Part shown: positions 6,640 to 52,410 of the stretch, in pieces | Layout: each line of letters opens with the position of its first letter | Position numbering within the stretch: the first letter of the stretch is position 1 | Source: an uncultured Acidobacteriota bacterium | GTDB lineage: Bacteria > Acidobacteriota > Terriglobia > Terriglobales > Acidobacteriaceae | NCBI GenBank assembly: GCA_963758565.1 | Contig: CAVWVX010000002.1 | Span: 202,186-266,185 of the forward strand | Length of the DNA stretch: 64,000 nt | Reading direction: 5' to 3' | Notes under the pieces: generated by a model | Databases searched by the model: none | What the model was told of the DNA's origin: nothing | Seen by the model: the letters and a program-made list of their open reading frames with translations, nothing else | Translations under genes and position numbers: made by a program

Positions 6640-7429
6640 GACTCGTTCCTTTTCTTGGTAGCTTTCGGCACGACTGAAGTCGTGCCCTTCCCGGTCGTGG
6701 CGGGGGCGAATTTCAAGAGGGATGGCGGCGGGGTGGCGCAGGCGAACAGCAGGTTCCTCGACTTCGCAAGATCATCCGCTTCGCGGATAATCCTGCTTCG
6801 CTCGGAATGACAAAATTGTTTGGGGGCTTGCGACGGGACTGAGGGCGTGCCCTTCCTGATCGTAGCGCTGCCAAAGTTCAAAACGTCCACGGGGGCTGAA
6901 GCCCGGCTAGCTTTTGGGGGGCTGGACGCGGCGCTGAAGCGCCGCTCTTCCACGGCGGTGCACGGGTTTGGGCGCGGATTGCGGCGGGACTGAGGGCGTG
7001 GCCTTCCTGGGCGTGGCGGTGGCGAATTCCTGGGGATGCGGCCGTGGAATCCCATGTTTCGCAAAGGACGCGAAACATGGGGCACCCGCGGTTCGTGGTG
7101 GCGTGGGAATTTTTCTTTCGCCCCTGCGGGGCTGGGTTATCGTCTCCTGCTTTTACCCACGGCGCGCGCCGTGGGCTGCATTCTTTCGCCGCTTCGCGGC
7201 TTGGTTCCATCTTAGGCGGCGTGCGGCCGATTTCGGCGCGCTTCGCTTGCTGAGGGCAGGCTCAAGAACTGAAGTTGTGCCCTTCGCGGTCGTGGCACTG
7301 CCGAATTCCTAGAAGGATGGGGCCGTGGAATCCCACGTTTCGCAAAGGACGCGAAACATATGGCACCCGCCGTTCGTGGTGGTTCCGGCGGACAGCAGAT
7401 TCCTCGCCGGGCTTTCAACTCCGTTCGGA
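6640..7429. repeat. Array of modular palindromic intergenic repeats (REP/MITE-like family)
   Basis: Hairpin ggcacgacTGAAgtcgtgcc at 6667-6686. Module 'cagcagRttcctc-[hairpin]-tcggaatgaYRa' at 6745-6814 and 7391-7436. A roughly 115-nt unit (..cgaattcct..ggccgtggaatcccaYgtttcgcaaaggacgcgaaacat..ggcacccgc.gttcgtggtgg) occurs at about 6985-7100 and about 7270-7385. Also gcggcgcTGAAgcgccgc and ggggcTGAAgccc hairpins. Confidence 0.85.
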
Positions 7430-9239: not shown

Positions 9240-9870
9240 TGGCGCTCTGCACGGTCCGCATTTCCTTGGGTTCGCGCCGCGCTTCGCTTGGTCAGGGCAG
9301 GCTCAAGAGCTGAAGTCGTGGTCTTTCCGGTCGCGGCGTTGGCGAATTCCTGGAGGGATGGAGGCATGGAATTCCCGGTCGTGGAGGCGTCGGCGAAAAG
9401 CAGATTCCTCACCGGCAAAGGACGCCGGTTCGGAATGACAAGGATTTTGGCTGGTTTGAGCTCTCTGTGGCGTCCCTACGGGCCTCGGTTCTATTTCGTG
9501 CGAGCTTACCCAGGATTTACGTCCCTTCGGCAAGCTCAGGGCAGGCTCTGGGCTATCATCTGGCGCCCCTCCGGGGCTTGGGTGTGGTGACGTCGGCTTA
9601 TTCTTCTTCTTCTTCTTCTTCTAACCGCCTTGTGGCTCCTCATTGAGGCTTACGGCAAGCTCGAAATCGTGCTCTTCGGGCGCGTCCGCTGACGAATTCC
9701 TGGAGGCCTGCGGTCATGGTTAGCGTCGGCGAAAAGCAGATTCCTCACCGGCAAGGACGCCGGTTCGGAATGACAAAGAATTTTGGAGGGTTTGAGCGGT
9801 TCGCTGATCGCAGTGCTGAAGCGCTGCGCCACCCAAAATCTCATTCTCTGTAATTCCGAGTTTTCCACAG
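9240..9870. repeat. Second array of modular palindromic repeats
   Basis: Module 'aaaagcagattcctcaccggcaaRggacgccggttcggaatgacaaRg' at 9395-9443 and 9727-9777. '..gaattcctggagg..' units at about 9340-9360 and about 9695-9712. gctcagggcaggctc units. gtgcTGAAgcgctgcgccacccaaaatc at about 9812-9842. Confidence 0.8.
9601..9622. repeat. (TTC)7 microsatellite
   Basis: ttcttcttcttcttcttcttct read directly from the sequence. Confidence 0.95.
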
Positions 9871-39155: not shown

Positions 39156-39582
39156 GATGGCCTTCTTTGCGATGAGAGATGCCGCACTGTCTGAGGGGCG
39201 GGAGTGGGTGAGGATCTCCGGCCTGGGGATCAGAGCGGAACACCGGAACTTATAAGTTTAGCTGGTTTGGGGAGGAAAGCGTAGGGGAGTGGGGCGATGT
39301 CGAGATTTTGGTTCCGGAAAATAAATGGGGCCAGTTCCGTCTGTCCCCGGTTTATTCCTCGCGCATCGATACCAGTTCCCCTAGGGTATGTGAGCTGGGG
39401 TTGGTCGGGTACTGCCACGTACACTCCGGGCCAGTGTGCTTCGACTTCTAACTGGTGCTTGACCTCGCCCAGCGTAACCACGCCTTCGTGGAGGCCAGGA
39501 AGCTCATATCCCACCTGGGCGGATTTGGTGCCTTTTAACGGGCAGATCTCGTGCCACTAGTTTTGTGAATGTGAGGATACTA

Positions 39583-40047
39583 ATGCGACTGATCAGATAT
39601 GCCCTTGTTGTCGTCCTTATCGCCTCAAACGCGAGCGCAGGTGATACTGCGGCGCTGTCCCTCAAGCTGACTGCGCTTGACTATGTGGTGAAGAGCGGAT
39701 CCAAGATTATGATTCAGGTGACTACTACCAACCGGTCCGATCACCCGATCACCTATCATAATACGAATCGCTGCGATTACTCGGTTAAGGTCCTATCGGG
39801 CAATGGCGCACCGGCTCCCGAAACACCGTTCAAGAAACAGCTGGACTGCAGCGGCGGCGAATTGAGAACTACCGGCAGAGATATCGTGGTGACTCTGAAG
39901 AGCGGCGAATCTGATCGGGAGCAGATCGAGATCACAGAGTTATACAATATGTCCGCTCCCGGTGATTATATAGTTCAGGTAGAGCGGACATTCCCTGAGA
40001 TTGGCCACTTTCGCTCCAATGCCGTAAATGTAAGGCTCAAACAATGA
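39583..40047 (+). CDS. Secreted hypothetical protein
   Basis: ATG at 39583 with GAGGA 7 nt upstream (the track ORF starts at the GTG at 39565). Signal peptide MRLIRYALVVVLIASNASAGD. No family recognised. Confidence 0.55.
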   Translation: MRLIRYALVVVLIASNASAGDTAALSLKLTALDYVVKSGSKIMIQVTTTNRSDHPITYHNTNRCDYSVKVLSGNGAPAPETPFKKQLDCSGGELRTTGRDIVVTLKSGESDREQIEITELYNMSAPGDYIVQVERTFPEIGHFRSNAVNVRLKQ

Positions 40048-40062
40048 ATTTAAGCATCGCCC

Positions 40063-41595
40063 TTGGGGGCGAATAGCGTCAGAAGCACAGGTTGCCGGGA
40101 ACGAGCAGTGAATCGTAGAATCGCATCTCTCTTAGCTTCTCAGATGCTCCTTGTCGGAATGCGCTCCGCCGCCGAGCTAACGCCCGTCTCACCAGACTTC
40201 GCGGTTCAATGGAACTCCGCCACCCTCCAGGGCATCCGCGATGCCAAGCTTGGCGCGCCCGTGGTCGCCCGCGCCCTAGCTATCGTCCACACTTGCATGT
40301 ATGACGCCTGGGCGGCCTACGATGAGCGCGCCATCGGACTCATCTGGGCGGGGCGCTGCGGCGTCCGGCGTCCGAGCGAACGCTGGCCAACAAAGAGCAA
40401 GCCGTCAGCTATGCTGCGTACCGCGCGTTGGTGGACGTGCTGCCCGTCGATACCAATGCGGTTTACATTCCGCTGATGAAGCAGCTCGGCTACGATCCGG
40501 GCGACGATTCCACCGACATTGAGACGCCCACCGGCATTGGCAATGTCGCCTGCGCCGCCGTGCTTGAATACCGCCATCACGATAAGTCGAACCAGCTGGG
40601 CGATCTGGCGCAAGGGCCTTATTCCGATTGGACGGGCTACGCCTCCCTAAACACGGCCAGCCCGGTGCCGTCGCGAACGCCGCCAGCCGACCCTAACCAT
40701 TGGCAGCCGCTGACCTACGTGAACTCCACCGGCGACCTGATGGCGCAACGATTCGTCGGAGCCCAGTGGTGCTACGTGACTCCGTTCGCGCTTACCGGCG
40801 GAGACCAATATCGCTGGCTCATGCGCCTTTTCGGTCCGGCCAAGGATGGCTCGAAGGAATATCAGCGAAGAGTTGGTGGCGATGAGCGCGGGGCTGACCG
40901 ACCGGCAAAAGATGATCGCCGAATACTGGTCGGATGGGCCGAACTCCGAGCAGCCTCCCGGCCACTGGGCACTATTCGCGCAGATCGTCTCCGAGCGCGA
41001 CCACCACACGCTGGATGATGATGTGAAGATGTTTTTCGCATTATCGAACGCCATGTTCGACGCCAGCATTGCGGTGTGGGATGCGAAGCGGGAATATGAT
41101 TCGGTGCGTCCGGTGACCGCGATTCCATTTCTGTTCCGCGGCAAGACGATCCGCTCCTGGGGCGGTCCGGGCAAGGGAACGGTGGAGATGGATGGTTCGC
41201 AGTGGATTCCGTATCAGGCGGTAACCTTTCCGACGCCGCCGTTTCCGGACTATGTTTCCGGACACAGCGCTTATAGCGCAGCGGCGGCGCGAATCCTTGA
41301 ACTGTGGAGCGGCAGCGACCGGTTCGGGTATTCCGTCACTGTTACTGCAGGGAGTTCGAAGATTGAGCCGGGGATCACGCCAGCGCGGCCGGTGACTTTG
41401 CGATGGGAGACATTTAGTGCTGGCGCGAACGAAGCTGGCATGTCACGGCGGTATGGCGGAATCCACTTTCGCGCGGCTGACCTGGCGGGGCGATTATTGG
41501 GGCGCGTGGTGGCCTTCGATGCCTGGAAGAAGGTGCAGGGGTATTTCGATGGAAGCGCTGGGGAACGCGTCAGTGCGATCGTCGGTGCCGAGTAG
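40063..41595 (+). pseudogene. Vanadium-dependent haloperoxidase / PAP2-superfamily protein disrupted by two 1-nt frameshifts
   Basis: Three overlapping ORFs (40063.., 40428.., 40846..) in frames 1/0/1 read through as one protein. The junctions are ..MYDAWAAYDERAIG | LGGALRRPASERTLANKEQAVSYAAYRALVDVLP.. and ..AKDGSKEYQ | EELVAMSAGLTDRQKMIAEYWSDGP..PPGHW.. PAP2 motifs: KREYDSVRP, YVSGHSAY, SRRYGGIHFRAAD. Confidence 0.7.
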
Positions 41596-41803
41596 GTTCA
41601 GGATCTCCTCTGCTCGCTGACTCGGCAATTCATCCCAAGCAGCCGAGCGCGGCCGCCTTCATCGTCACCAAAATAATGAGTGAGCACTATTGAGCAGCCT
41701 TGCAGCCTTGCCTCGCCCTACCATCGTCGCAAGGTAAATATCCATGACAACCGCAGTGCTCGAAGCCTCCACTCCTCTCGTCACTTACAACAGCAAAGCC
41801 ATC

Positions 41804-42856
41804 ATGAAAGCGCTGGTCTATCACGGACCGGGCAAATACGGCTGGGAGGACAAGCCGCGACCCACGATCATGGAGGCAGCCGACGCCATCGTGCGAGTTA
41901 CGACGTCCACGATCTGCGGAACCGATCTGCACATTCTTAAAGGCGATCTGCCTGCCGTAACCGACGGACGCATTCTCGGCCACGAGGCTATCGGCGTGAT
42001 CGAAGAAGTCGGCACGGGGGTCTAGGAGTTTCACGCCGGCGACAAGGTGATTGTCTCCTGCGTCACCGCTTGCCTGAAGTGCGACTTCTGCAAGCGAGGC
42101 ATGTATTCGCATTGCCGCCACGGCGGTTGGATTCTGGGCTACACCCTCGACGGAACTCAGGCGGAGTACGTACGCATCCCGCAAGCCGATGGCAGCTTGT
42201 ACCACTTTCCGGCTGGCGCCGACGAAGAAGCCATGGTCATGCTCAGCGACATTCTGCCCACCGGCTTCGAGTGCGGCGCCCTGAACGGCCAGGTGAAGCC
42301 AGGAGACTCCATTGCGATTGTGGGAGCGGGACCGGTGGGACTGGCGGTTCTGCTGACCGCGCAATTCTATTCGCCGGCGGCGATCTTCATGATCGACCTC
42401 GACCAGAAGCGGCTGGCGGTGGCCAGGACGTTAGGCGCGACCAATCTCGTCAATAGTTCTGACGGACACGCTGCGCAGGAGGTGATGAAACTCACCGAAG
42501 GCGCCGGCGTCGATGTGGCCATTGAAGCCGTCGGGCTGCCCGCTACTTTTGCCATCTGCCAGGACATTGTAGGACCCGGCGGCCGCATCGCCAACGTAGG
42601 CGTTCACGGGAAGCCTGTGGAACTCCATCTGGAAAAGCTTTGGGACCGCAATATTGCCATCACCAATGCCCTGGTGGATGCGGTGACTACTCCGATGCTG
42701 CTCAAGGTCGTGCGTTCGGGCAAGCTGCAGCCCGCCAAGCTGGTGACTCACCGCTTTGCCATGAACGACATCCTGAAGGCATACGACACATTCGCCAACG
42801 CAGCCAGAGAGAGCGCACTGAAGGTGGTGCTCACGAATGGCGGGGCGCGCGGGTGA
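41804..42856 (+). pseudogene. Zinc-dependent (MDR-family) alcohol dehydrogenase interrupted by an in-frame TAG
   Basis: ORFs 41744..42025 and 42047..42856 share one frame. The sequence reads ..ICGTDLHILKG..GHEAIGVIEEVGTGV-TAG(42023-42025)-EFHAGDKVIVSCVTACLKCDFCKRG.. NAD-binding motif IVGAGPVGL. The likely true start is MKALVYHGPG at 41804. Confidence 0.7.
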
Positions 42857-43023
42857 GTAGGCGCGATTTCAGGACTCAAAACGGGAATCGGATCGCCACA
42901 CTTTAGGGCCCCCTCTGCAGTTCTGGCTTGTGGTTCTGCGCCTCACTGCCGAAAGATTAATTACAGGCACTGGACCAAAAAATTTCGGACGATTGATCAA
43001 CCTTATCCAGGGAGGGCACGCTC

Positions 43024-43977
43024 ATGCGGACGCCAGAATATTTCAGGGCCTCTCAAGTTCTATTGTTCTCGACTTTATTTCTTTGCTGCGTGGCTGATGT
43101 TTCGGGACAGGCCAAGCCGGCGGCTCCCGCCAACCATGCTCAGTCCTCCAGCGCAGGCGTGCCCTCCGCCGATGCTTCCAAGTATGTGGGTGTGGAAACC
43201 TGTAAGGGCTGTCACGAAGAAATCTACACGGCATGGGAGAAGACTCCGCACTGGAAGACCACTCTCAATACAAAGGGTGGTCCGGGGCAGCAGGGTTGCG
43301 AAGGCTGCCATGGTGCCGGCGCCGAGCACGTGGCCGGAGGCGGGGACAAGAGTAAGATTTACATTTTTAAGGACCACTCGCGGGAAGAAACCAGCGCCCG
43401 CTGTTTAACCTGTCACGGCGAGGGTCGCCAACAATCTCACTACTCGCAGTCCGCCCATGCCGGCAGCGCAGTCGGTTGCCTGGATTGCCACTCTCCGCAT
43501 CACGCCAAAGAGCCGGAGCACCTTCTGGTGCAGAGCCAGCCCCAGTTATGTTATGGCTGCCACACGGCCGCCAAAGCCGATTTCGCCAAGCCCTTTCATC
43601 ACCGGGTGAATGAAGGTCTGGTGCAATGCGCCGACTGCCACAATCCGCACGGCACCGCGACGGTGAGGCAAGTACGCACCCTGCCCAGCGGAGATGCCGT
43701 CTGCTACAAGTGCCACGTCGATAAGCAGGGACCATTTGTTTACGAGCATGTGCCGGTCAAGACGGAGGGTTGCACCAGCTGCCATTCGCCCCACGGCTCG
43801 ACCAACCCGCGGCTTCTAAAGGTGGGCTTGGTCAACATGATGTGCCTGCAGTGCCACACCGCCCCGACGCAAGGGCCAGCCGGGCCGGCGCACAATCAGT
43901 CGGCGAAATATCAAGCCTGCACCATGTGCCACAACCAGATTCACGGCTCGAACTTCAGCGCTGTCTTTTTCAAATGA
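43024..43977 (+). CDS. Periplasmic decahaem c-type cytochrome (MtrA/DmsE/PioA family-like)
   Basis: 317 aa with a signal peptide and ten CxxCH motifs: CKGCH, CEGCH, CLTCH, CLDCH, CYGCH, CADCH, CYKCH, CTSCH, CLQCH, CTMCH. Confidence 0.88.
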   Translation: MRTPEYFRASQVLLFSTLFLCCVADVSGQAKPAAPANHAQSSSAGVPSADASKYVGVETCKGCHEEIYTAWEKTPHWKTTLNTKGGPGQQGCEGCHGAGAEHVAGGGDKSKIYIFKDHSREETSARCLTCHGEGRQQSHYSQSAHAGSAVGCLDCHSPHHAKEPEHLLVQSQPQLCYGCHTAAKADFAKPFHHRVNEGLVQCADCHNPHGTATVRQVRTLPSGDAVCYKCHVDKQGPFVYEHVPVKTEGCTSCHSPHGSTNPRLLKVGLVNMMCLQCHTAPTQGPAGPAHNQSAKYQACTMCHNQIHGSNFSAVFFK

Positions 43978-43985
43978 GGATTTAT

Positions 43986-46307
43986 ATGACTTTATCCAAG
44001 AAGAACAACTCTGCGACTTCGCCTCCATGGCAACGGTCCGGGTCGAGCAAATCCTTCGCTACTCACGCCTTGGTCTTGAGTGTGCTTTGCGGGTTGATCT
44101 TCGCCTGCCCGCCGTGCCTCATTGCCCAATCCAACCCGGGCCAGCCCGCCAGCGACGATGGCGCGATTCGCGGCGGGTATCTGGTGCACTCTTCCGTGGA
44201 AGTCGGGTATCGCTCCACCGATGTGGATGGCAGTAGCGCAATGTACGACACTCTGGTGAATCTGCAAACCGGTCCGCGCCTTCTGGAGCAGACCCTCTCC
44301 ATGCATGCGCTCGATCATCAGGGCTTCCTGTTTGACGATCTGTCGCTGAACAGCTTTGGCTGGGGCGGCGATCCTAACAATGCCTTGCGTCTACGCGTCG
44401 GCAAGAACAAGTGGTATAAACTGCAGAGCAGTTTTCGACGCGACCAGTATTTCTCCGATTTCGATTTGCTGGCCAACCCGCTGAATCCGCCGCCGCCCCC
44501 GGCGATCGGGGGCTCCACTCCGTCGATACCGGTGCTGAACTCCCCCGCCGAATTCGCCACAACGCGGCGCATGAGCGATGTCGACCTCACTTTGCTGCCG
44601 CAGTCCCGCCTAAGCTTTCGACTGGGCTACTCGCACAACAACATGACCGGTCCGGTTTACACCAGCGTCCACGAGGGCACCGAGGGATTGCTCTTGCAGC
44701 CGTGGAACACAACCATGGATTCCTACCGGATGGGGGCGGATTTTAGAATCGCGCCGCGCACTGTTCTCAGCTATGACCAATTTCTCGATTACTACCGTGG
44801 AGACACCAATACGCAACTCACTTCGTTCGCCCCGGCGCTGTTGCCGGGCGGCTCTCCGGTGGAGCTGGGATTGTCGATTGACACCGCGAACAAGATACCC
44901 TGTGCCGTAAAGGCTCCGGCGACCAGCCTGATCGATTCCACTGGAACCCTTACCAACACTACGTGCAGCGCCTATTTCGACTACTCCCGGGTGCAGCGGA
45001 TACGCACTTCTGCTCCCACTGAGCGCCTCAGCTTTCGCAGCAATTACTTCCAGCGCGTCGATTTGACCGCTTCGTTCTCCTACAGTGACGCGGAGATGAC
45101 CACTCCGTTGACCGAATCCTTCAACGGACTGCTCACCCGCACCAATACGCTGGCGTTCCTGGGCACTGGAACGGCGGCAGCGAGCCGAATCTCCGACACG
45201 TTCGATCTTGGGGCCACGGTGCACTTGACCCCGCATCTTCGGCTGATAGAGAAATTTTATTTCTGGGCTTACCGCATTCCGGAGAACGCGAATTTCAACG
45301 AACTCGACTATAGCTGCGCTGTGGCGCCGTGCAACCTTTTAAGCACGCCGCTGGCCGTGCCGGAGGTGCCGGGTGGAACCCCCACGGTAACTACATCTTC
45401 TTTTAATCAGGACTGGAAGAGAAACCAGACCGAACTGGCCTGGGACATTTCAAAAAAAGTCGGTGCCCGCATCGGCTACCGCTGGGGTGATCGCGAATTT
45501 AATCACTTCAACGACTTTCTGCCGGGAGACCAGGACCATTTCGTAGCCATCGAGAAGACTGCCTTGCTCGGCCTGTGGGCGCGGCCCATTCATACCTTGC
45601 GATTGAATTTCGACTACGAGCACAGCAACTACAACGCTGTCTTCGTCCGCATCTCACCGCGCAAAGAAGCCCGCTACCGCTTTCAGGCCAGCTACACGCC
45701 GCGGCCTTGGGCCATTCTGGGTGGCTCGATCAATCTTCAGCAGGATTCCAATGCCGACATACTCACGGCGTACAAGGCACATAACCAGAACTACGGCATC
45801 ACCGCTTCGCTCGCGCCCCGCCAGCGCTTTAGTCTTGATGTTGCCTATAACTACAACAGCGTTTTGCAGAACGCCCTGATCTGTTTTGCCGACACCGTGC
45901 CCGTTGGAGCGGTGCTGCCCTTCGTCAGCGGCGCCAGCAACAACAATTGCGCGGGCGCCGACATGTCGAACAACCTGATGGCGAATTCGTTCTACAACGC
46001 CCGTACGAATTTCGGCATGACCACCATCCGTTTCAAGTTTGACAAGCGGACCACAGTGAACGCGGGTGGCAGCGTCACCAGTGTTGACGGCAGTATGCCG
46101 CAATTTAATATTCTGCAACCGCAAGGCTCCGCCCAATACAAGTTTTACCAGCCGGTAGCCGGGTTGAGCGTTGATCTGGGTCACAAGCTGGCATGGAACA
46201 GCGGCTGGAACTATTCTCAGTACAACGAAGGTTCGTTTATTGGTCCCACCGCACCGCGTTATTTCCATGCCAACTTGTTGACAGAGTCGCTGCGCTACGC
46301 TTTCTAG
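43986..46307 (+). CDS. Outer-membrane beta-barrel protein, MtrB/PioB-like partner of the decahaem cytochrome
   Basis: Track ORF 43770..46307 trimmed to the ATG at 43986 (GAGGA 6 nt upstream; an alternative ATG at 43974 overlaps the cytochrome stop). Signal peptide. About 770 aa with alternating aromatic/polar beta-strand texture and a C-terminal ..SLRYAF (terminal Phe). Confidence 0.65.
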   Translation: MTLSKKNNSATSPPWQRSGSSKSFATHALVLSVLCGLIFACPPCLIAQSNPGQPASDDGAIRGGYLVHSSVEVGYRSTDVDGSSAMYDTLVNLQTGPRLLEQTLSMHALDHQGFLFDDLSLNSFGWGGDPNNALRLRVGKNKWYKLQSSFRRDQYFSDFDLLANPLNPPPPPAIGGSTPSIPVLNSPAEFATTRRMSDVDLTLLPQSRLSFRLGYSHNNMTGPVYTSVHEGTEGLLLQPWNTTMDSYRMGADFRIAPRTVLSYDQFLDYYRGDTNTQLTSFAPALLPGGSPVELGLSIDTANKIPCAVKAPATSLIDSTGTLTNTTCSAYFDYSRVQRIRTSAPTERLSFRSNYFQRVDLTASFSYSDAEMTTPLTESFNGLLTRTNTLAFLGTGTAAASRISDTFDLGATVHLTPHLRLIEKFYFWAYRIPENANFNELDYSCAVAPCNLLSTPLAVPEVPGGTPTVTTSSFNQDWKRNQTELAWDISKKVGARIGYRWGDREFNHFNDFLPGDQDHFVAIEKTALLGLWARPIHTLRLNFDYEHSNYNAVFVRISPRKEARYRFQASYTPRPWAILGGSINLQQDSNADILTAYKAHNQNYGITASLAPRQRFSLDVAYNYNSVLQNALICFADTVPVGAVLPFVSGASNNNCAGADMSNNLMANSFYNARTNFGMTTIRFKFDKRTTVNAGGSVTSVDGSMPQFNILQPQGSAQYKFYQPVAGLSVDLGHKLAWNSGWNYSQYNEGSFIGPTAPRYFHANLLTESLRYAF

Positions 46308-46566
46308 GTTTCCTGCAATGCCTGGGTGACGTGCCGCTAAAACCTTGTGTCACGCCGTTTCGTCCTGCGTTTCGGCTATGGCGCACTACTGTCATCCGCC
46401 GCTGGTTGCGAAAGATTGTCTGCGCCCAGGGTTTGGCTCTGCGGGAGCACGACATGGCGGACCCGCCGGCAGTGATGGTATTGACGCGAGCGTTGTCGCG
46501 CTTCCACTGATTTCCTCGCTTCTTCCGAACCCGCCCGCATCTTCCAACTTTAATTCAACGAGAACG

Positions 46567-47928
46567 CTATACACCCCAGAGGTAGTCCTCCTGTTGCTGG
46601 TCGTGATGATCGGTCGGAATGGGAAGAGGGAGATTGAAGGTCTGGGTTTGCGCAGCCATGGGGAAAGGCCGGTGCGGCTCCGGCGAAGCTACGGAGTTGG
46701 AAGCTGCGGCAGAGGCCGTGGCGGCGGCGGGCAGCGGTTCGAACAGCGGTGTAGCGGAAGCTGCGGGCTTGTGCGTATCGCGGATCAATTCGAGCAAGTG
46801 GTGATCTTCGACGTGCTTGATCTTGTCGGCGAGCCGGACGAAGCGACGGTAGATATCGTCGAGAGCGCGGCGGTCGAATTCGTACCCCAGCTGCCCGCAG
46901 CGGATGGCGAGCGCGTGGCGTCCGGAGTGTTTGCCCAGCACCAGTTTTGAGTCCGGCACGCCCACCGATTTTGGAGTCATGATCTCGTAGGTGAGCGGAT
47001 TTTTCAACATGCCATCCTGATGAATGCCGGCTTCGTGGGCGAAGGCGTTCCGTCCGATAATAGCTTTATTCGGCTGTACCGGGACGCCAGTAATTTCGCT
47101 GAGCAACTGGCTGGCGGGAAAAAGATGTTCGGCGGCTACGCCCGTTTCGTAGGGGTAGCGATCGTGGCGGACGCGCATGGCCATGACCAGTTCTTCAAGC
47201 GAGGCATTTCCCGCACGCTCGCCGATCCCATTGATGGTGCATTCGACCTGGCGGGCTCCAGCGGCGACGGCAGCCATGGTATTGGCGACAGCCATGCCTA
47301 GGTCGTTATGGCAGTGAGCCGAGATAGTAACGTTCTCGATTCCCTTCACGCGGCGGCGGATCGTGGTGATGAGTTCGCCGAACTCAGAGGGAATGGTATA
47401 GCCAACGGTGTCGGGAATATTGAGCGTGGTGGCCCCGGCGGAGATGACCGCCTCGAGCACATGGCAAAGAAAGTCTGGATCGGTGCGGGTGGCGTCTTCG
47501 GGGGAAAATTCAACGTCGTCGCACAGCGATTTCGCGAATGCCACAGCTTCGCGGGCCTGGGCCAGACACTCTTCCCGGCTGATGCGCAGCTTATGTTGCA
47601 GGTGAATGTCGGAAGTGGCCAGGAATACGTGAATACGAGGGCGGGCGGCGTGCTTCAAAGCTTCCCAGGCCCGCTCAATGTCGGGGCGGCAGGCACGGGC
47701 CAGACCGGCAATAATAGGGCGGCGGATGACGGCAGATATGGCTTTGACTGCGGCGAAATCGCCGTCGGAGGCAATGGGAAATCCGGCTTCAATCACATCG
47801 ACGCCAAGGCGGTCGAGTTGGTGAGCCAGGCGCAGCTTTTCCTGATGGTTCATGCTGCAACCGGGAGACTGTTCTCCATCGCGGAGAGTGGTATCGAAGA
47901 CGGTAACGCGAACCTGATCCGTAGCCAT
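46567..47928 (-). CDS. 2-isopropylmalate synthase / homocitrate synthase-family enzyme lacking the usual C-terminal regulatory domain
   Basis: The N-terminus [36 protein letters not shown] and GIGERAGNA form the HMGL-like TIM barrel. The last ~70 aa are a low-complexity Ala/Pro/Ser/Gln tail. Confidence 0.8.
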
Positions 47929-48065
47929 GAGATTTCTTGATTCCTTCGTAGTCTCAATGGTACGGGGTTACTGTGGTTAAGCAAAACTTATAATTCTTAA
48001 ATGACCATTAGTTTTGCTACTATGATAAGATATTCTAATTGACAATGAAGTTATTATAAGGGTGA
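47929..48065. promoter_or_regulatory. AT-rich divergent promoter / LysR-operator region
   Basis: Markedly AT-rich 137-nt spacer between divergent genes. The 8-nt inverted repeat cttataat (47987-47994) / attataag (48053-48060) places a TATAAT hexamer in each orientation. TTGACA at 48039-48044. Confidence 0.35.
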
Positions 48066-48986
48066 ATGATGGAGCTTTCGCAGCTGGAAGTGTTCCTGGC
48101 AGTGGCGCGCGAGCATCGCTTCTCGCGGGCGGCTGAAAAACTGCATCGCACGCAATCGGCCGTGAGCCAGACCATCCGCAAGCTCGAAGACGAGCTCGGA
48201 GAGGCTTTATTTGACCGTTCGTCTCGGGAAGGTGCGCTGACCGACGCGGGAACCGTGCTTTACGAATACGCCGAGAAGTTGTTGAATTTGCGGCATGACG
48301 CGCAGGAGTCGCTGACCGAACTGCGGGAGTTGCACAAGGGTAAGCTGGTGATCGCGGCCAATGAATTCACCGCGCTGTATCTTTTGCCGGTGCTGGCGGA
48401 ATACCGCAGGCTGCATCCCATGATCAAGATTACGGTGCAGCGGGCTTTGGGCAGCAGGATTCCGGACGACGTGTTGCAGCACACCGCCGAACTGGGGGTG
48501 TTGTCGTATAAGCCAGAAGAGCCTCGGCTGCACTCGGTGGTGACTTATCTGGACGAACTCGTGCTGGTGGTCCCGCCAAAACATCCACTGGCGACGGCGA
48601 AGCAGGTAAGCATTCGCCAGTTGGGGGCTGAATCTTTTGTGGCGCACATTGTGTCTTCGCCGTACCGCGAAAAAGTCTTGCAAACATTTCATAAATACAA
48701 AACCCCGCTCCATATGGATTTGGAATTGCCGACGCTGCAGGCGATCAAGCAATTTGTTGCTCTGGGAAACGGCGTCGCCTTCATGCCGGAAATTGGTGTG
48801 GAAGCGGAACTGGCTCGCGGTGAGTTGGTGCGAATTCCGGTGCGGGAGTTGAGAGTGCAGCGGAAGTTGCGGCTGATTTATCGCAAAGAGGCAGGATTGT
48901 CCCATGCGGCGCGCGCGTTTATGAAAGTGGCGGAAGCGGTGGCCGTGGAGCGGGCGGGGCGCTATCGGTTCCAGCGGGAAAGTTGA
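48066..48986 (+). CDS. LysR-family transcriptional regulator
   Basis: N-terminal wHTH LSQLEVFLAVAREHRFSRAAEKLHRTQSAVSQTIRKLEDELG. About 300 aa with a typical LysR substrate-binding domain. Confidence 0.92.
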   Translation: MMELSQLEVFLAVAREHRFSRAAEKLHRTQSAVSQTIRKLEDELGEALFDRSSREGALTDAGTVLYEYAEKLLNLRHDAQESLTELRELHKGKLVIAANEFTALYLLPVLAEYRRLHPMIKITVQRALGSRIPDDVLQHTAELGVLSYKPEEPRLHSVVTYLDELVLVVPPKHPLATAKQVSIRQLGAESFVAHIVSSPYREKVLQTFHKYKTPLHMDLELPTLQAIKQFVALGNGVAFMPEIGVEAELARGELVRIPVRELRVQRKLRLIYRKEAGLSHAARAFMKVAEAVAVERAGRYRFQRES

Positions 48987-49046
48987 CTGCTGCAACACCA
49001 GGCTATGCCGGAGCCAGCGGTCTCCCCCGCATTCAAAGGATGTGTC

Positions 49047-49412
49047 TTAGCAGTCGGCGCAAGCTTCGGAGGGCTGCAAAGCCGCCAGCGCTTCGCCCAG
49101 GGTGGAATGAATATCGAGAACAGAATTTACATGAGTAATCCGGAGCAGGGTATGCACCAGGGGCGTGGGATTGGCGCACTTAAGCTCCGCGTTGCGCGAA
49201 CGTGCCCAGGTTTGAAGAAAAACTAACTCACCAATGCCAGCACTGTCGATGGATGTGACGCCGTTAAGGTCGAGCACGACTTTGCCGCCCTGATCGAGAA
49301 TTTCGCCGACCAGGCGCGAAAGAGAAGCGGCCTCTTCGCGATAGACGATGCGGCCCTGGCAGTGAACGATCATTACATCACCGCGATTGCGAGTTTCCAA
49401 ACTGAGTTTCAA
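49047..49412 (-). CDS. STAS-domain anti-sigma-factor antagonist (SpoIIAA-like)
   Basis: VVLDLNGVTSIDSAGIGELV motif with the phosphorylatable Ser context. TTG start with AAGGAG 6 nt upstream. Confidence 0.8.
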   Translation of the reverse strand: MKLSLETRNRGDVMIVHCQGRIVYREEAASLSRLVGEILDQGGKVVLDLNGVTSIDSAGIGELVFLQTWARSRNAELKCANPTPLVHTLLRITHVNSVLDIHSTLGEALAALQPSEACADC

Positions 49413-49709
49413 CGTTGACTCCTTGTAGGGTGCTGCCAGAACGGCCCAAGGTTGCGGTTGCGAGGATGATGGCTAATTTGTGTTTGAGAATTCCATGCTA
49501 CCTGATAGACGCGTGAAAATGGGTTTCGGAATCATGAAAAACACATAATTTCTCGCACAGAGGTTCTAGTTCTGCACTGCCATGATTTTAAAAGGCATGG
49601 GCATCCTGCGAGGGCGTTCGGCCGCATCCAAGCAATAGTCGCTAAAGTATTTCGTACATTCAGGTAGAATTTGCTGCTGGCACTTATTTGCCGGGGAGGA
49701 TTCATCTTC

Positions 49710-50240
49710 GTGTTGAAAACCGTTGCCGTAGTTCTGGCATTCCTGACCTTAATGCTGGTCTCAGCAAATTCCAAAGCCCAACTTATTCCCAGCGGAAACC
49801 TTTATGCCGGGGCGGCGTATGCGTCTTCTGAAGACGTCGTGAACCGGCTGGCCTTCCGGGGATGGGATGGTTCGGTGGAAGCATTTCCATTTCACCATGC
49901 CGCTTATGTGGGTATTGTGCTGGATGGCAGCGGTCTTTATACGAAAGGTGCGGCCAACTCGGGCACCATTCAACAGTACAACCTGGTGCTGGGTCCGCGG
50001 GTATCGATGAACTACGGAAAGTGGCGTCCATTTGCGCACGTGATGGGCGGGATACAACAGACCAAGTCTGGCGGAAACAACTATCATCCGGCTGCCCTCG
50101 ACTTCGGCGGCGGCGTCGACCGCAAACTGACCTTCAAGAATTTCTCCTGGCGATTGCAATTCGACTACGTGCATACCCACCTGCTCAGCCAGAGCCAGAA
50201 CGAATATCGGGGCTCAACCGGAATTGTCTGGCGCTTCTGA
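49710..50240 (+). CDS. Small outer-membrane beta-barrel protein (paralogue 1 of 3)
   Basis: GTG at 49710 with GGAGGA 9 nt upstream. Signal peptide ..LVSANSKAQ. Shared motifs IPSGN.., GWDGSVE, FGPRVS..GKWRPFAH, GGGVD.K, C-terminal STGIVWRF. Confidence 0.7.
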   Translation: MLKTVAVVLAFLTLMLVSANSKAQLIPSGNLYAGAAYASSEDVVNRLAFRGWDGSVEAFPFHHAAYVGIVLDGSGLYTKGAANSGTIQQYNLVLGPRVSMNYGKWRPFAHVMGGIQQTKSGGNNYHPAALDFGGGVDRKLTFKNFSWRLQFDYVHTHLLSQSQNEYRGSTGIVWRF

Positions 50241-50346
50241 GAGAGAAGCGGTTTAAACATAAAACGTTTCACGCATCCGAAACTTCCGGCAACGATCTGG
50301 GTTGGTGGAGTTGTCCACGTTCGAACTCGAACTCCGGAGGGACTCT

Positions 50347-50964
50347 ATGCGGCTGCCCGGAACCACAACGGCGCGCCTGCGCCGATCGCTAGCAATTGCC
50401 ATCGTGAGTTTGGTCTCTTGTGTGGCGAACGCACAAGTTCCCACCAGCGGAAACGTTTTCTTCGGCTACTCCTATCTCAATACGACACCCCTCACTTTCG
50501 TCGGGATCACCAGCCGGCAGGGCCTGAATGGATGGGAAGGGTCAGTCGAGGGCAAGGTGTTTCGTTATGTCGGAGTGGTGGCTGACTTCAGCGGAAATTA
50601 TGGCTCGCAGACACTGCCGATCGCCGTTGGAACCTGTGCAATTGGAGTGGTGTGCTCGCCCATCCGGACGAACACCCACATCCAGAACTTTCTCTTTGGG
50701 CCACGAGTGTCAGCCAACTTTGGGAAGGTACGCCCGTTTGGCGAATTCTTGGTGGGCGCCGGACATGCGGATGCGACTTCGCCTGGGCCTGATTCCATAG
50801 TGTCGAACGACACGACGTTTGCCCTGGCTGTCGGGGGTGGCCTGGATTACAAAATCATCCGACCCATCGCTGCACGCTTTCAGGCTGATTACATTCAGAC
50901 ACATCTCTTCGGAACGAATCAGAACAATATTCGGTTGTCGACGGGCATCGTGCTGAGATTTTAG
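50347..50964 (+). CDS. Small outer-membrane beta-barrel protein (paralogue 2 of 3)
   Basis: ATG at 50347 after GGAGGGA. Signal ..VSCVANAQ. VPTSGNVFFGYSY, NGWEGSVEGKV, LFGPRVSANFGKVRPFGE, GGGLDYKIIRP, STGIVLRF. Confidence 0.7.
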   Translation: MRLPGTTTARLRRSLAIAIVSLVSCVANAQVPTSGNVFFGYSYLNTTPLTFVGITSRQGLNGWEGSVEGKVFRYVGVVADFSGNYGSQTLPIAVGTCAIGVVCSPIRTNTHIQNFLFGPRVSANFGKVRPFGEFLVGAGHADATSPGPDSIVSNDTTFALAVGGGLDYKIIRPIAARFQADYIQTHLFGTNQNNIRLSTGIVLRF

Positions 50965-51096
50965 CTGTTGTGTGCGATGCCGGACGCATAGAAAAACTGG
51001 CCAGCATTCGTGTTAATGCTTCCCTACTCAAGGGCATCCAAACGGTTATTGCATCCTCGTGCAAATCAAGTTAGAGAGTTGAGGTTGAATGTTGCT

Positions 51097-51642
51097 ATGC
51101 GAAAAGTTGGAATCACTCTTGCTCTTCTACTATTTGCTGGACTGGCAAGCGCACAAATTCCGACCAGCGGGAATGTGTCTTTTGGCTATACCTATTACAG
51201 TGCCGACGTCACGTCACTGGGTCGCACCAGTTTCAACGGCTGGAACGGATCGCTGGAGGGCAAGGTCCTCCCTTTCATCGGAATGGTCGCAGATATAAGC
51301 AGTGTCTACGGTTCCGCCAATGAACTAATTTTGTGTCCCGAGATTGTTTGTCCCACACAGAGCATCAGCGCGCACGAGCAGAATTTTCTATTCGGCCCGC
51401 GGGTGTCGGCATCGGTGGGCAAGTTTCGTCCTTTTGCCGAAGCGTTATTTGGAGCGGGCCACGTGAACGTGAATGGCTATTCTTCCGATACGTCGTTTGC
51501 GACGGCAGTCGGCGGCGGGCTTGATTACAAAATCATACGACCCCTCGCGTGGCGGTTTGAGGGGGACTACGTTCAAACTCGCTTCTTTGGCACGACCCAG
51601 AACAATGTGCGGATCTCTACGGGAATCGTGTTGCGCTTTTAG
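51097..51642 (+). CDS. Small outer-membrane beta-barrel protein (paralogue 3 of 3)
   Basis: ATG at 51097. Signal MRKVGITLALLLFAGLASAQ. IPTSGNVSFGYTY, NGWNGSLEGKV, LFGPRVSASVGKFRPFAE, GGGLDYKIIRP, STGIVLRF. Confidence 0.7.
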   Translation: MRKVGITLALLLFAGLASAQIPTSGNVSFGYTYYSADVTSLGRTSFNGWNGSLEGKVLPFIGMVADISSVYGSANELILCPEIVCPTQSISAHEQNFLFGPRVSASVGKFRPFAEALFGAGHVNVNGYSSDTSFATAVGGGLDYKIIRPLAWRFEGDYVQTRFFGTTQNNVRISTGIVLRF

Positions 51643-51654
51643 CGGCGCTTCGTT

Positions 51655-52410
51655 TTAAGTCTGCCAGTATTTGTGATCGCGTAAGAAGTAGTTTTCGTTC
51701 CAGTAGTTCATTGCCGTCTTCAGGAAGAGCCATCCCACGCGCATGTGTCCCATCTTCTGGAAGCGGCGGTTGGTGGTGTAGACGCCGCCGCGCACGATGC
51801 CGAAGCGCTTGCGTTCTACTTGTTGGCTGAGCCGATAATCCTCGGCAAAAAGAACTTGTTCGTGAAATCCGCGGAGCTCGCGAAATTTCTTCAGGTCGAA
51901 AAGCATGAACATCCCAGTGGCGAAGGGATGATGCAGCCGCGAGAGATGCTGGAATAGATCGTTGCCAACATAGAACAATTTGTCGACCCAGTTGCCGCCC
52001 TGGCACAGAATATTTGTCGTCACGCAATGAAGTTTCTTGCCTTGCGCCAGTTCCACCGCACGGCGGATGACCGAGGGATGCGCCAGTTCAATATCGGCGT
52101 CGAGAAAGAGAACGTAGGTGCTCTCGGCGTGTGCCGCACCCAGATTGCGCCCCACGGATGGCATGCCGCCGCGAATCACGCTGACGTTCAGGCGGTCGCG
52201 AAAGCCAAGAACAATTTCAGGAGTGCCGTCGGTCGAATTGGCGTCAGCGACCAACACTCTCGTACTCGACATCTTCGAGTAGTCCTGATTCGTCAGCGAA
52301 GTCAGCAGGCGCGGAATCAGTTTCGCCTCGTTCTTGGCCGGAATCACGATCGTCAGTTCGCTCGTGGTATTGATGCTCATCGTATTCATGGATTTGAACT
52401 CCCTGTTCAT
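51655..52410 (-). CDS. Family 2 glycosyltransferase
   Basis: LTIVIPAKNEAKLIPRLLTSLTNQDY.. and FLDADIE (DxD). The start is ambiguous (52410, 52389 or 52380). Confidence 0.85.
   Translation of the reverse strand: MNREFKSMNTMSINTTSELTIVIPAKNEAKLIPRLLTSLTNQDYSKMSSTRVLVADANSTDGTPEIVLGFRDRLNVSVIRGGMPSVGRNLGAAHAESTYVLFLDADIELAHPSVIRRAVELAQGKKLHCVTTNILCQGGNWVDKLFYVGNDLFQHLSRLHHPFATGMFMLFDLKKFRELRGFHEQVLFAEDYRLSQQVERKRFGIVRGGVYTTNRRFQKMGHMRVGWLFLKTAMNYWNENYFLRDHKYWQT

Follow-up and report, generated by a model that had tools for sequence, protein, structure and literature searches.

PioAB of Rhodopseudomonas palustris TIE-1 and MtoAB of Sideroxydans and Gallionella are conduits for Fe(II) oxidation that combine a decahaem cytochrome with an outer membrane barrel and lack MtrC. 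In Geobacter sulfurreducens, GSU2204 has been listed as an MtrB/PioB-type barrel (PMC13188914), and GSU2203 and GSU2204 are both induced with iron oxides (PMC4070692). The combination of a protein of the DmsE family, one of the MtrB/PioB family and a NapC/NirT protein has been read as an iron electron-transfer pathway in other lineages (PMC13390463). Among Acidobacteria, candidate mtrA/mtrB genes were described by Eichorst et al. from numerous cultured members, with strains of Koribacter, Granulicella, Terriglobus and Edaphobacter among them, but without complete mtr/omc operons (PMC5900883), Lipson et al. described acidobacterial MtrA homologues in Arctic peat (PMC3669403), and MtrCAB "Group 5" is found in Bryobacteraceae (PMC8805035). 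A 2026 preprint describes porin–cytochrome clusters that are expressed in peat Acidobacteriota and anchored on extracellular multihaem cytochromes; of these extracellular electron transfer (EET) clusters, EET1 is placed in Terriglobales/UBA7540 and the Mtr-like EET2 in Bryobacterales (10.64898/2026.05.27.727921). The occurrence of mtrA/mtrB-like genes in Acidobacteria is already published, and finding them is in itself no surprise. Here we analyzed a stretch of 64,000 nucleotides, referred to as the window, from an uncultured acidobacterium (Acidobacteriota; Terriglobia; Terriglobales; Acidobacteriaceae; GenBank assembly GCA_963758565.1, contig CAVWVX010000002.1, positions 202,186–266,185 of the forward strand), in which a gene for a decahaem cytochrome directly precedes a gene for a large barrel protein. 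We consider it quite probable that both genes belong to a single operon encoding an MtrAB-type outer membrane electron conduit.

The open reading frame (ORF) of the cytochrome occupies positions 43024–43977 on the plus strand, and its translation of 317 residues contains exactly ten CxxCH motifs, as the initial annotation of this DNA had described; no CxxxCH or CxxxxCH variants occur in it. The ORF of the barrel protein ends with a stop codon at 46307 and encodes the C-terminus ...LRYAF. It has two candidate starts, and the initial annotation had named the spacing that goes with each (a gap within 9 nt, or an ATGA overlap). The ATG at 43974 gives 777 residues and overlaps the cytochrome stop codon as ATGA, and the ATG at 43986 gives 773 residues and leaves an intergenic gap of 8 nt. 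The start at 43986 is the likelier of the two, because a GAGGA sequence at 43976–43980 sits 5 nt upstream of it and the N-termini of the closest homologues agree with it. This GAGGA shares bases with the cytochrome stop codon, an arrangement suggestive of translational coupling in a single operon. An ORF of 845 amino acids starting from TTG at 43770, which appeared in the mechanically produced ORF list, was rejected as an artefact of upstream read-through. The two genes and the intervening signal are (window coordinates):

43024..43977, plus strand: decahaem c-type cytochrome gene of the DmsE/MtrA family, 317 amino acids (ten CxxCH; TIGR03508, Paired_CXXCH_1 and 6R2Q_A)
43976..43980, plus strand: Shine-Dalgarno-like GAGGA (read from the sequence of 43951–44010)
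43986..46307, plus strand: predicted outer membrane β-barrel gene, 773 amino acids, ~26 strands, MtrB-like fold (AlphaFold2, Foldseek and hhalign)

The ten CxxCH motifs of the cytochrome begin at residues 60, 92, 127, 152, 176, 202, 227, 250, 274 and 299, and together span residues 60–303. Such a cluster in 317 residues is far beyond chance, because a six-frame translation of the rest of the window contains only six lone CxxCH matches and never two in one ORF. Residues 1 to ~28 read, by eye and not by a predictor, as a hydrophobic signal peptide, with the hydrophobic segment visible at residues 11–27; a linker of ~27 amino acids rich in Ala, Pro, Ser and Gln follows. Such a signal peptide would direct the cytochrome to the periplasm. 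The protein scored 263 bits on the NCBIfam model TIGR03508 (DmsE family decahaem cytochrome), above the curated cut-off of 192.2, and residues 56–312 aligned with positions 1–257 of the 258 in the profile. It also matched Pfam Paired_CXXCH_1 (E 1.5e-32), and its homologues number in the thousands. The sole strong match in the PDB was 6R2Q_A (E 7.8e-38), which we take to be the MtrA chain of MtrCAB from Shewanella baltica. Each of the ten CxxCH motifs of the cytochrome pairs with one of the ten in MtrA, in collinear order. Because the curated cut-off is passed and the protein aligns with MtrA of 6R2Q, we assign it by sequence to the DmsE/MtrA family of decahaem cytochromes; the comparison with MtrA/DmsE models proposed in the initial annotation thus came out in its favor. 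The model for GSU2203 (OmcK), NF041028, was matched over the full length of the cytochrome at 221.9 bits, below its cut-off of 325.

The barrel protein was modelled with AlphaFold2 from an alignment of 56 diverse sequences, which gave a predicted local distance difference test (pLDDT) score of 84.5 and a predicted template modelling (pTM) score of 0.77. Residues 60–772 of the model are all-β, with 26–27 strand segments counted from its DSSP string, and tight turns alternate with long loops. Residues 1–56 have pLDDT values below 50 and are disordered save for a signal-peptide helix at 27–38; no plug or TonB-box domain is present in the model, since this N-terminal region comprises the signal peptide and a short tail. 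When the model was searched against the PDB with Foldseek, the best match was 6R2Q_B, MtrB (E 8.7e-16), with a template modelling (TM) score of 0.60 when normalized to the length of the query and 0.71 when normalized to that of MtrB. The next matches were mostly 22-strand TonB-dependent receptors with TM scores of 0.30–0.46. On the strength of this model, the protein is predicted with confidence to be a large outer membrane barrel of ~26 strands, without a plug and with an MtrB-like fold. The initial annotation had described a signal-peptide protein of roughly 770 amino acids with barrel-like sequence ending in LRYAF, and had suggested barrel prediction as a check. The 773-residue, all-β model with MtrB as its top match bears out that description, and with the cytochrome passing the DmsE/MtrA family cut-off, the MtrAB-type porin–cytochrome reading stands.

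Relatives of the barrel protein are numerous. A word-indexed search found 1,962 related proteins; the best 120 of these carry no Pfam domain, and those named in their source are all "hypothetical protein". An exhaustive search gave hits in 1,386 clusters (50% identity), and E was ≤1e-30 for 258 of these. When the 56 diverse full-length relatives were compared with PF11854, a single match was obtained (E 0.0056), and four grazed the generic OMP_b-brl model. The one outer membrane model that the window protein itself touched was NF041027, for the GSU2204 family, at 43.9 bits against a cut-off of 350 and over residues 562–638 only; 32 of the 56 diverse relatives also matched this model weakly. 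Sequence and profile searches against the PDB returned nothing relevant, and in these searches together with Pfam and NCBIfam no unrelated outer membrane family claimed the protein. With a confidently predicted barrel and no such rival family, the protein withstood the test by which the initial annotation would have been refuted.

The relationship to MtrB was probed with family profiles. The S. oneidensis MtrB sequence matched 6R2Q_B end to end (1,401 bits), which confirmed chain B as MtrB; the S. baltica MtrB sequence of that chain was used for later comparisons. With hhalign, the profile of the barrel family aligned to a profile of 43 Shewanella MtrB sequences with a probability of 94.6% (E 6.6e-8, 532 columns). 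The alignment is collinear, starts near residue 134 and extends to the C-terminal residue of both proteins, at an identity between barrel and MtrB of ~12–14%. Taken together, the predicted fold and the profile–profile result argue that the barrel is a remote MtrB homologue beyond the reach of the curated models.

The N-terminus and the cysteines of the barrel protein provide further points of comparison, at the following positions:

43986..44126, plus strand: predicted signal peptide of the barrel protein, residues 1–47 (conserved A47/Q48, low-pLDDT N-terminus)
44106–44117, plus strand: CPPC motif, barrel residues 41–44 (read from the sequence)
44901..45950, plus strand: part of the barrel gene with two conserved cysteine pairs (conservation in 56 diverse relatives)

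The predicted cleavage of the signal peptide is ...CLIA|QSNPGQ. A47 is nearly invariant and Q48 invariant in close relatives, and both are nearly invariant in the diverse set. The CPPC motif directly precedes this family-wide A|Q signal-peptidase site, which bears out the suspicion in the initial annotation that it might lie within the signal peptide. Among 58 close and 56 distant relatives, one sequence in each set has a CxxC at this position, and both times it is the window protein itself. Since it lies within the signal peptide and is unique to the window protein, we rejected CPPC as a functional redox motif, and for the same reasons it is not the counterpart of the N-terminal CxxC of MtrB, whose C42 and C45 are invariant in the 43 Shewanella sequences. 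Conserved cysteines are found elsewhere, as the pairs C306/C327 (44901–44966) and C633/C655 (45882–45950), which are kept in 55, 52, 55 and 56 of the 56 diverse relatives, respectively. In the model they lie in or beside the long loops 273–328 and 636–662, and each pair probably forms a disulfide. The weak match to the GSU2204 model, named "(seleno)protein part 1", reaches as far as position 575 of the 580 in the profile and breaks off shortly ahead of the invariant C633. The CXXCH/selenocysteine site of the Geobacter protein may correspond to the C633/C655 loop of the barrel family.

We scanned one genome per GTDB species and found 130 loci that encode a relative of the barrel; 80 of them, with 52–81% identity, were kept. 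All but one of the 80 hosts are Acidobacteriota genomes from metagenomes, labelled Terriglobales, Acidobacteriaceae, Candidatus Sulfotelmatobacter or Candidatus Acidiferrales, and the exception is a Candidatus Binatia genome. Peat sites such as palsa, bog and fen account for many of them, and the peat genome SbA1 is included. An intact decahaem ORF lies immediately 5' of the barrel gene in 74 of the 80 loci, and cytochrome similarity was detected in 78; loci without an intact pair are cut by a contig end or frameshifted. The pairing is strict, and none of the other window neighbors is conserved around it across the 80 loci, save a Zn-dependent alcohol dehydrogenase (Zn-ADH) in five. For this reason the window context offers no functional clue. 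An additional multihaem gene abuts the pair in 25 loci. In 21 of these it encodes a membrane-anchored pentahaem protein of ~480–510 amino acids, located 3' of the pair in closer relatives and 5' in the group with 52–58% identity; in the other four it encodes a NapC/CymA-sized protein of ~204 amino acids. The representatives of these proteins that were scanned pass the Pfam NapC/NirT cut-off, and their N-terminal modules resemble NrfH, TorC and NapC. No MtrC-sized surface decahaem cytochrome was found in the 80 loci, and the extra multihaem ORFs characterized in the 25 loci are of NapC/NirT or CbcL type.

Two of these loci have unusual arrangements. In one with 58% identity (L061, 6109–14155), three multihaem ORFs flank the pair: a small one with five CxxCH motifs, one for a 691-residue fusion of a multihaem domain with cytochrome b, and one for a six-haem NapC/NirT protein. 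The 691-residue protein joins 11 CxxCH motifs to a membrane domain like cytochrome b561/FdnI, and we presume it to be similar to Geobacter CbcL. The products of this single locus would take electrons all the way from the inner membrane to the outer. In the other (L073, 6753–8918), a single ORF of 722 amino acids begins in the cytochrome gene, carries nine CxxCH motifs and continues through into the gene of the barrel; this could be an artefact of a frameshift or of assembly, or else a natural fusion of cytochrome and barrel.

Our proposed mechanism begins with export of both proteins by their signal peptides. The 773-residue protein would insert into the outer membrane as a barrel of ~26 strands, and the decahaem cytochrome would thread its lumen to form a complex, so that a chain of ten haems, if all motifs are loaded, would span the membrane with the barrel as insulation. 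Electrons from the quinol pool would reach the periplasmic end through a NapC/NirT-type inner membrane cytochrome, either directly or by way of periplasmic carriers. This partner, which is adjacent in ~30% of relatives, would be encoded outside the window in the present genome. Since an MtrC-like partner is missing at the outer end, small or soluble extracellular redox species would exchange electrons with the last haem itself. With outward flow, the acceptors would be chelated Fe(III), humic quinones or organic matter of the peat.

Several results weigh against an MtrAB-type conduit. A Pfam scan of the barrel gave zero matches at E ≤0.1, PF11854 (MtrB_PioB) included, and NCBIfam TIGR03509 was unmatched at the same threshold; Shewanella MtrB, used as a positive control, scored 763.8 bits on TIGR03509. 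TIGR03509 was matched by none of the 56 diverse relatives either, and the barrel-family profile aligned to a single MtrB sequence with an hhalign probability of only 3.3%. Of the comparison with MtrB/PioB models suggested in the initial annotation, the curated models thus stayed silent and the profile–profile alignment gave the positive result. The proposed homology to MtrB rests on that one result and the predicted fold. The mature barrel protein has no counterpart of the N-terminal CxxC that is invariant in MtrB of Shewanella. When the cytochrome was modelled by itself with AlphaFold2 (50 homologues), pLDDT was 43.7 and pTM 0.25, too poor for a fold search; the low scores probably arise because a haem-packed protein was modelled without haems and from a shallow alignment. 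Translated in six frames, the 64-kb window has no second ORF with two or more CxxCH motifs, MtrC-like or otherwise, nor did it contain a quinol dehydrogenase, a periplasmic shuttle or a haem-maturation gene (ccm). A tblastn search of the window with the NapC/NirT proteins of the relatives gave no match. The statement in the initial annotation that no MtrC-like or CymA-like gene is adjacent therefore holds for the window as a whole. Many Terriglobales are regarded as aerobes, and the sequence features do not fix the direction of electron flow. The silence of the curated MtrB/PioB models would fit a module that is no conduit at all, in which a large barrel of an ordinary kind, a porin or transporter, is merely co-transcribed with a soluble periplasmic cytochrome that acts as electron carrier or reductase; so would the fact that large barrels are alike, as 205 PDB chains matched the barrel model in Foldseek at E ≤0.001. 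We find this barely plausible, since MtrB stands well apart from other barrels in the fold search (TM 0.71 versus ≤0.46), the barrel lacks a plug or TonB-box domain, the decahaem cytochrome is paired with it in 78 of 80 loci while other neighbors vary, and the profile–profile link to MtrB reaches 94.6%. It is very unlikely, too, that the module resembles DmsEF and feeds an extracellular non-haem terminal reductase encoded elsewhere, for example a molybdoenzyme for dimethyl sulfoxide, iodate or another soluble oxidant. The curated family whose cut-off the cytochrome passes is named after DmsE, and DmsEF, which is homologous to MtrAB, serves DmsAB (PMC13390463, PMC9732548). However, known dmsEFAB genes are clustered (PMC9732548), whereas no DmsAB-like molybdoenzyme gene is evident beside the pair, where the neighbors are a Zn-ADH pseudogene and a homocitrate/isopropylmalate synthase-like gene, and NapC/NirT cytochromes are the only recurrent neighbors in the 80 loci.

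With an MtrAB-type conduit as the preferred interpretation, the direction of electron flow has to be considered. The initial annotation had placed the module closer to the Fe(II)-oxidizing PioAB/MtoAB systems on account of the missing MtrC. In that case the same conduit would work inward: extracellular Fe(II) or reduced humics would donate electrons, which would enter the periplasm and continue to the quinone pool or an oxidase. With its two components, and with the MtrC-like surface cytochrome absent from the window and the 80 loci, the module matches PioAB/MtoAB (PMC8805035); moreover, NapC/NirT-type neighbors also occur in oxidizing systems (CymA, ImoA; PMC13390463), and PioA/PioB homologues are reported to be widespread in Acidobacteria (PMC10654088). 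The assignment to Fe(II) oxidation did not hold up as a deduction, though: MtoA and PioA do not form a function-specific clade apart from MtrA (PMC8805035), so architecture alone cannot decide the direction, and NapC/NirT partners such as those next to the pair in relatives serve both directions (PMC13390463). In addition, no protein of the HiPIP (PioC), MtoD or Cyc2 type was found among the ten neighboring ORFs scanned (39565–52410), a carbon-fixation context was not seen, and the hosts are heterotrophs of organic-rich peat, where extracellular acceptors and not donors are thought to be limiting (10.64898/2026.05.27.727921). Inward flow is rather unlikely in our estimate. We favor outward flow over Fe(II) oxidation, as somewhat probable, because the hosts are heterotrophic Terriglobales-type Acidobacteria of acidic, often anoxic peat and soil.

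The surroundings of the module are those of an ordinary chromosome. Its neighbors in the window are the Zn-ADH gene with a stop codon, a VCPO/PAP2-like gene, an HMGL-like (homocitrate/isopropylmalate) synthase, a LysR regulator and a STAS protein, and the wider window encodes a class II ribonucleotide reductase, an electron transfer flavoprotein–quinone oxidoreductase, an AcrB pump, an NAD-dependent DNA ligase and, as read from its sequence, an aconitase. The fraction of G+C is 0.58–0.59 over the module and 0.52–0.61 over the window; composition thus gives no sign of a foreign island, and this possibility was rejected. In a promoter and terminator scan of 41500–48200, counts were within ~1.4 standard deviations of the shuffled expectation and yielded no usable signal, and Rfam returned nothing near the module.

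Both genes immediately upstream are disrupted. The Zn-ADH gene (41744–42856, plus strand) has an in-frame TAG at 42023–42025. Four relatives (L007, L012, L037 and L045) have Ser at this position (GVSEFH) in a gene that is otherwise ~75–89% identical; the TAG is either a nonsense mutation or a sequencing error. The VCPO/PAP2-like gene (40063–41595, plus strand), with a DUF6851 and a VCPO second domain, is broken into three ORFs that overlap and lie in frames 1, 0 and 1, implying two frameshifts. Two adjacent disrupted genes suggest gene decay or assembly errors. Downstream, at 49671–51642 (plus strand), three tandem paralogous genes encode outer membrane β-barrels of 189–220 amino acids that end in ...GIVLRF or ...GIVWRF; the one scanned (50302–50964) scores just under the OMP_b-brl cut-off. 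The Acido-Lenti-1 RNA motif (Rfam RF01687) occurs twice, at 7156–7201 and 9535–9578 (plus strand), at or above the gathering threshold, which fits an acidobacterial source for the window. A region of high GC skew at 10–14 kb tracks minus-strand genes for a MoaA-like protein and two paralogous secreted proteins.

Terriglobales-type Acidobacteria are among the most abundant bacteria of acidic soils and peat, and their anaerobic respiration is an ecological question tied to the balance of CO2 and methane in peat. A conserved conduit in at least 130 species-level genomes would be a concrete route to Fe(III)/humic respiration or Fe(II) oxidation. Standard annotation names the cytochrome and leaves the barrel as a "hypothetical protein", and because PF11854 and TIGR03509 miss the barrel, surveys that require a match to such models would undercount the module. 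What is modestly new is that the barrels of a large clade are missed by the curated MtrB/PioB models, and that the sole model-level affinity of this clade is with the uncharacterized GSU2204 family of Geobacter. A more speculative proposal, which we put forward only tentatively, is that this is a large unannotated MtrB-like clade, nearer to GSU2204 than to MtrB/PioB, which together with its decahaem cytochrome provides a minimal, MtrC-less conduit for peat Terriglobales respiring humic or particulate organic matter or chelated Fe(III). If true, the minimal conduit would be part of the molecular basis of the unexplained anaerobic CO2 production in bogs.

Compared with the MtrA–MtrB core of Shewanella MtrCAB (6R2Q), the cytochrome belongs to the same curated decahaem family and its ten motifs align with those of MtrA, the barrel of ~26 strands has MtrB as its best structural match, and the two genes share the cytochrome-then-barrel order and the tight linkage of MtrAB. 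The module and its relatives differ in having no surface decahaem cytochrome of the MtrC/OmcA type. The barrel is ~75 amino acids longer than MtrB, is only ~12–14% identical to it and is missed by PF11854 and TIGR03509; in place of the N-terminal CxxC it has two conserved cysteine pairs in loops. Shewanella is a gammaproteobacterium, whereas the host here is an acidobacterium.

The two-component make-up without an extracellular cytochrome is shared with PioAB and MtoAB, and the NapC/NirT-type partner near the pair in relatives recalls CymA/ImoA next to mtoAB (PMC13390463). Unlike PioABC and MtoAB, the window pair has no adjacent HiPIP (PioC) or MtoD in the ten ORFs scanned, and no adjacent CymA/ImoA-type cytochrome. 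Its barrel is set apart from PioB/MtoB in that the MtrB/PioB models miss it, a distinction drawn from the models and not from PioB or MtoB sequences, and the hosts here are heterotrophs from peat.

The G. sulfurreducens pair is similar in that the cytochrome matches the model of GSU2203 (OmcK, a decahaem cytochrome) over its full length, and the barrel and 32 of its 56 diverse relatives weakly match that of GSU2204. The scores are far under the cut-offs (222 versus 325 and 44 versus 350), the barrel match covers residues 562–638 only, and the barrel has no CXXCH or selenocysteine motif. EET1 and EET2 of peat Acidobacteriota contain surface cytochromes or scaffolds, as does MtrCAB of Bryobacteraceae, whereas the present module has none; it shares with them the phylum, the habitat, the pairing of a porin with multihaem cytochromes and a low identity to characterized Mtr components.

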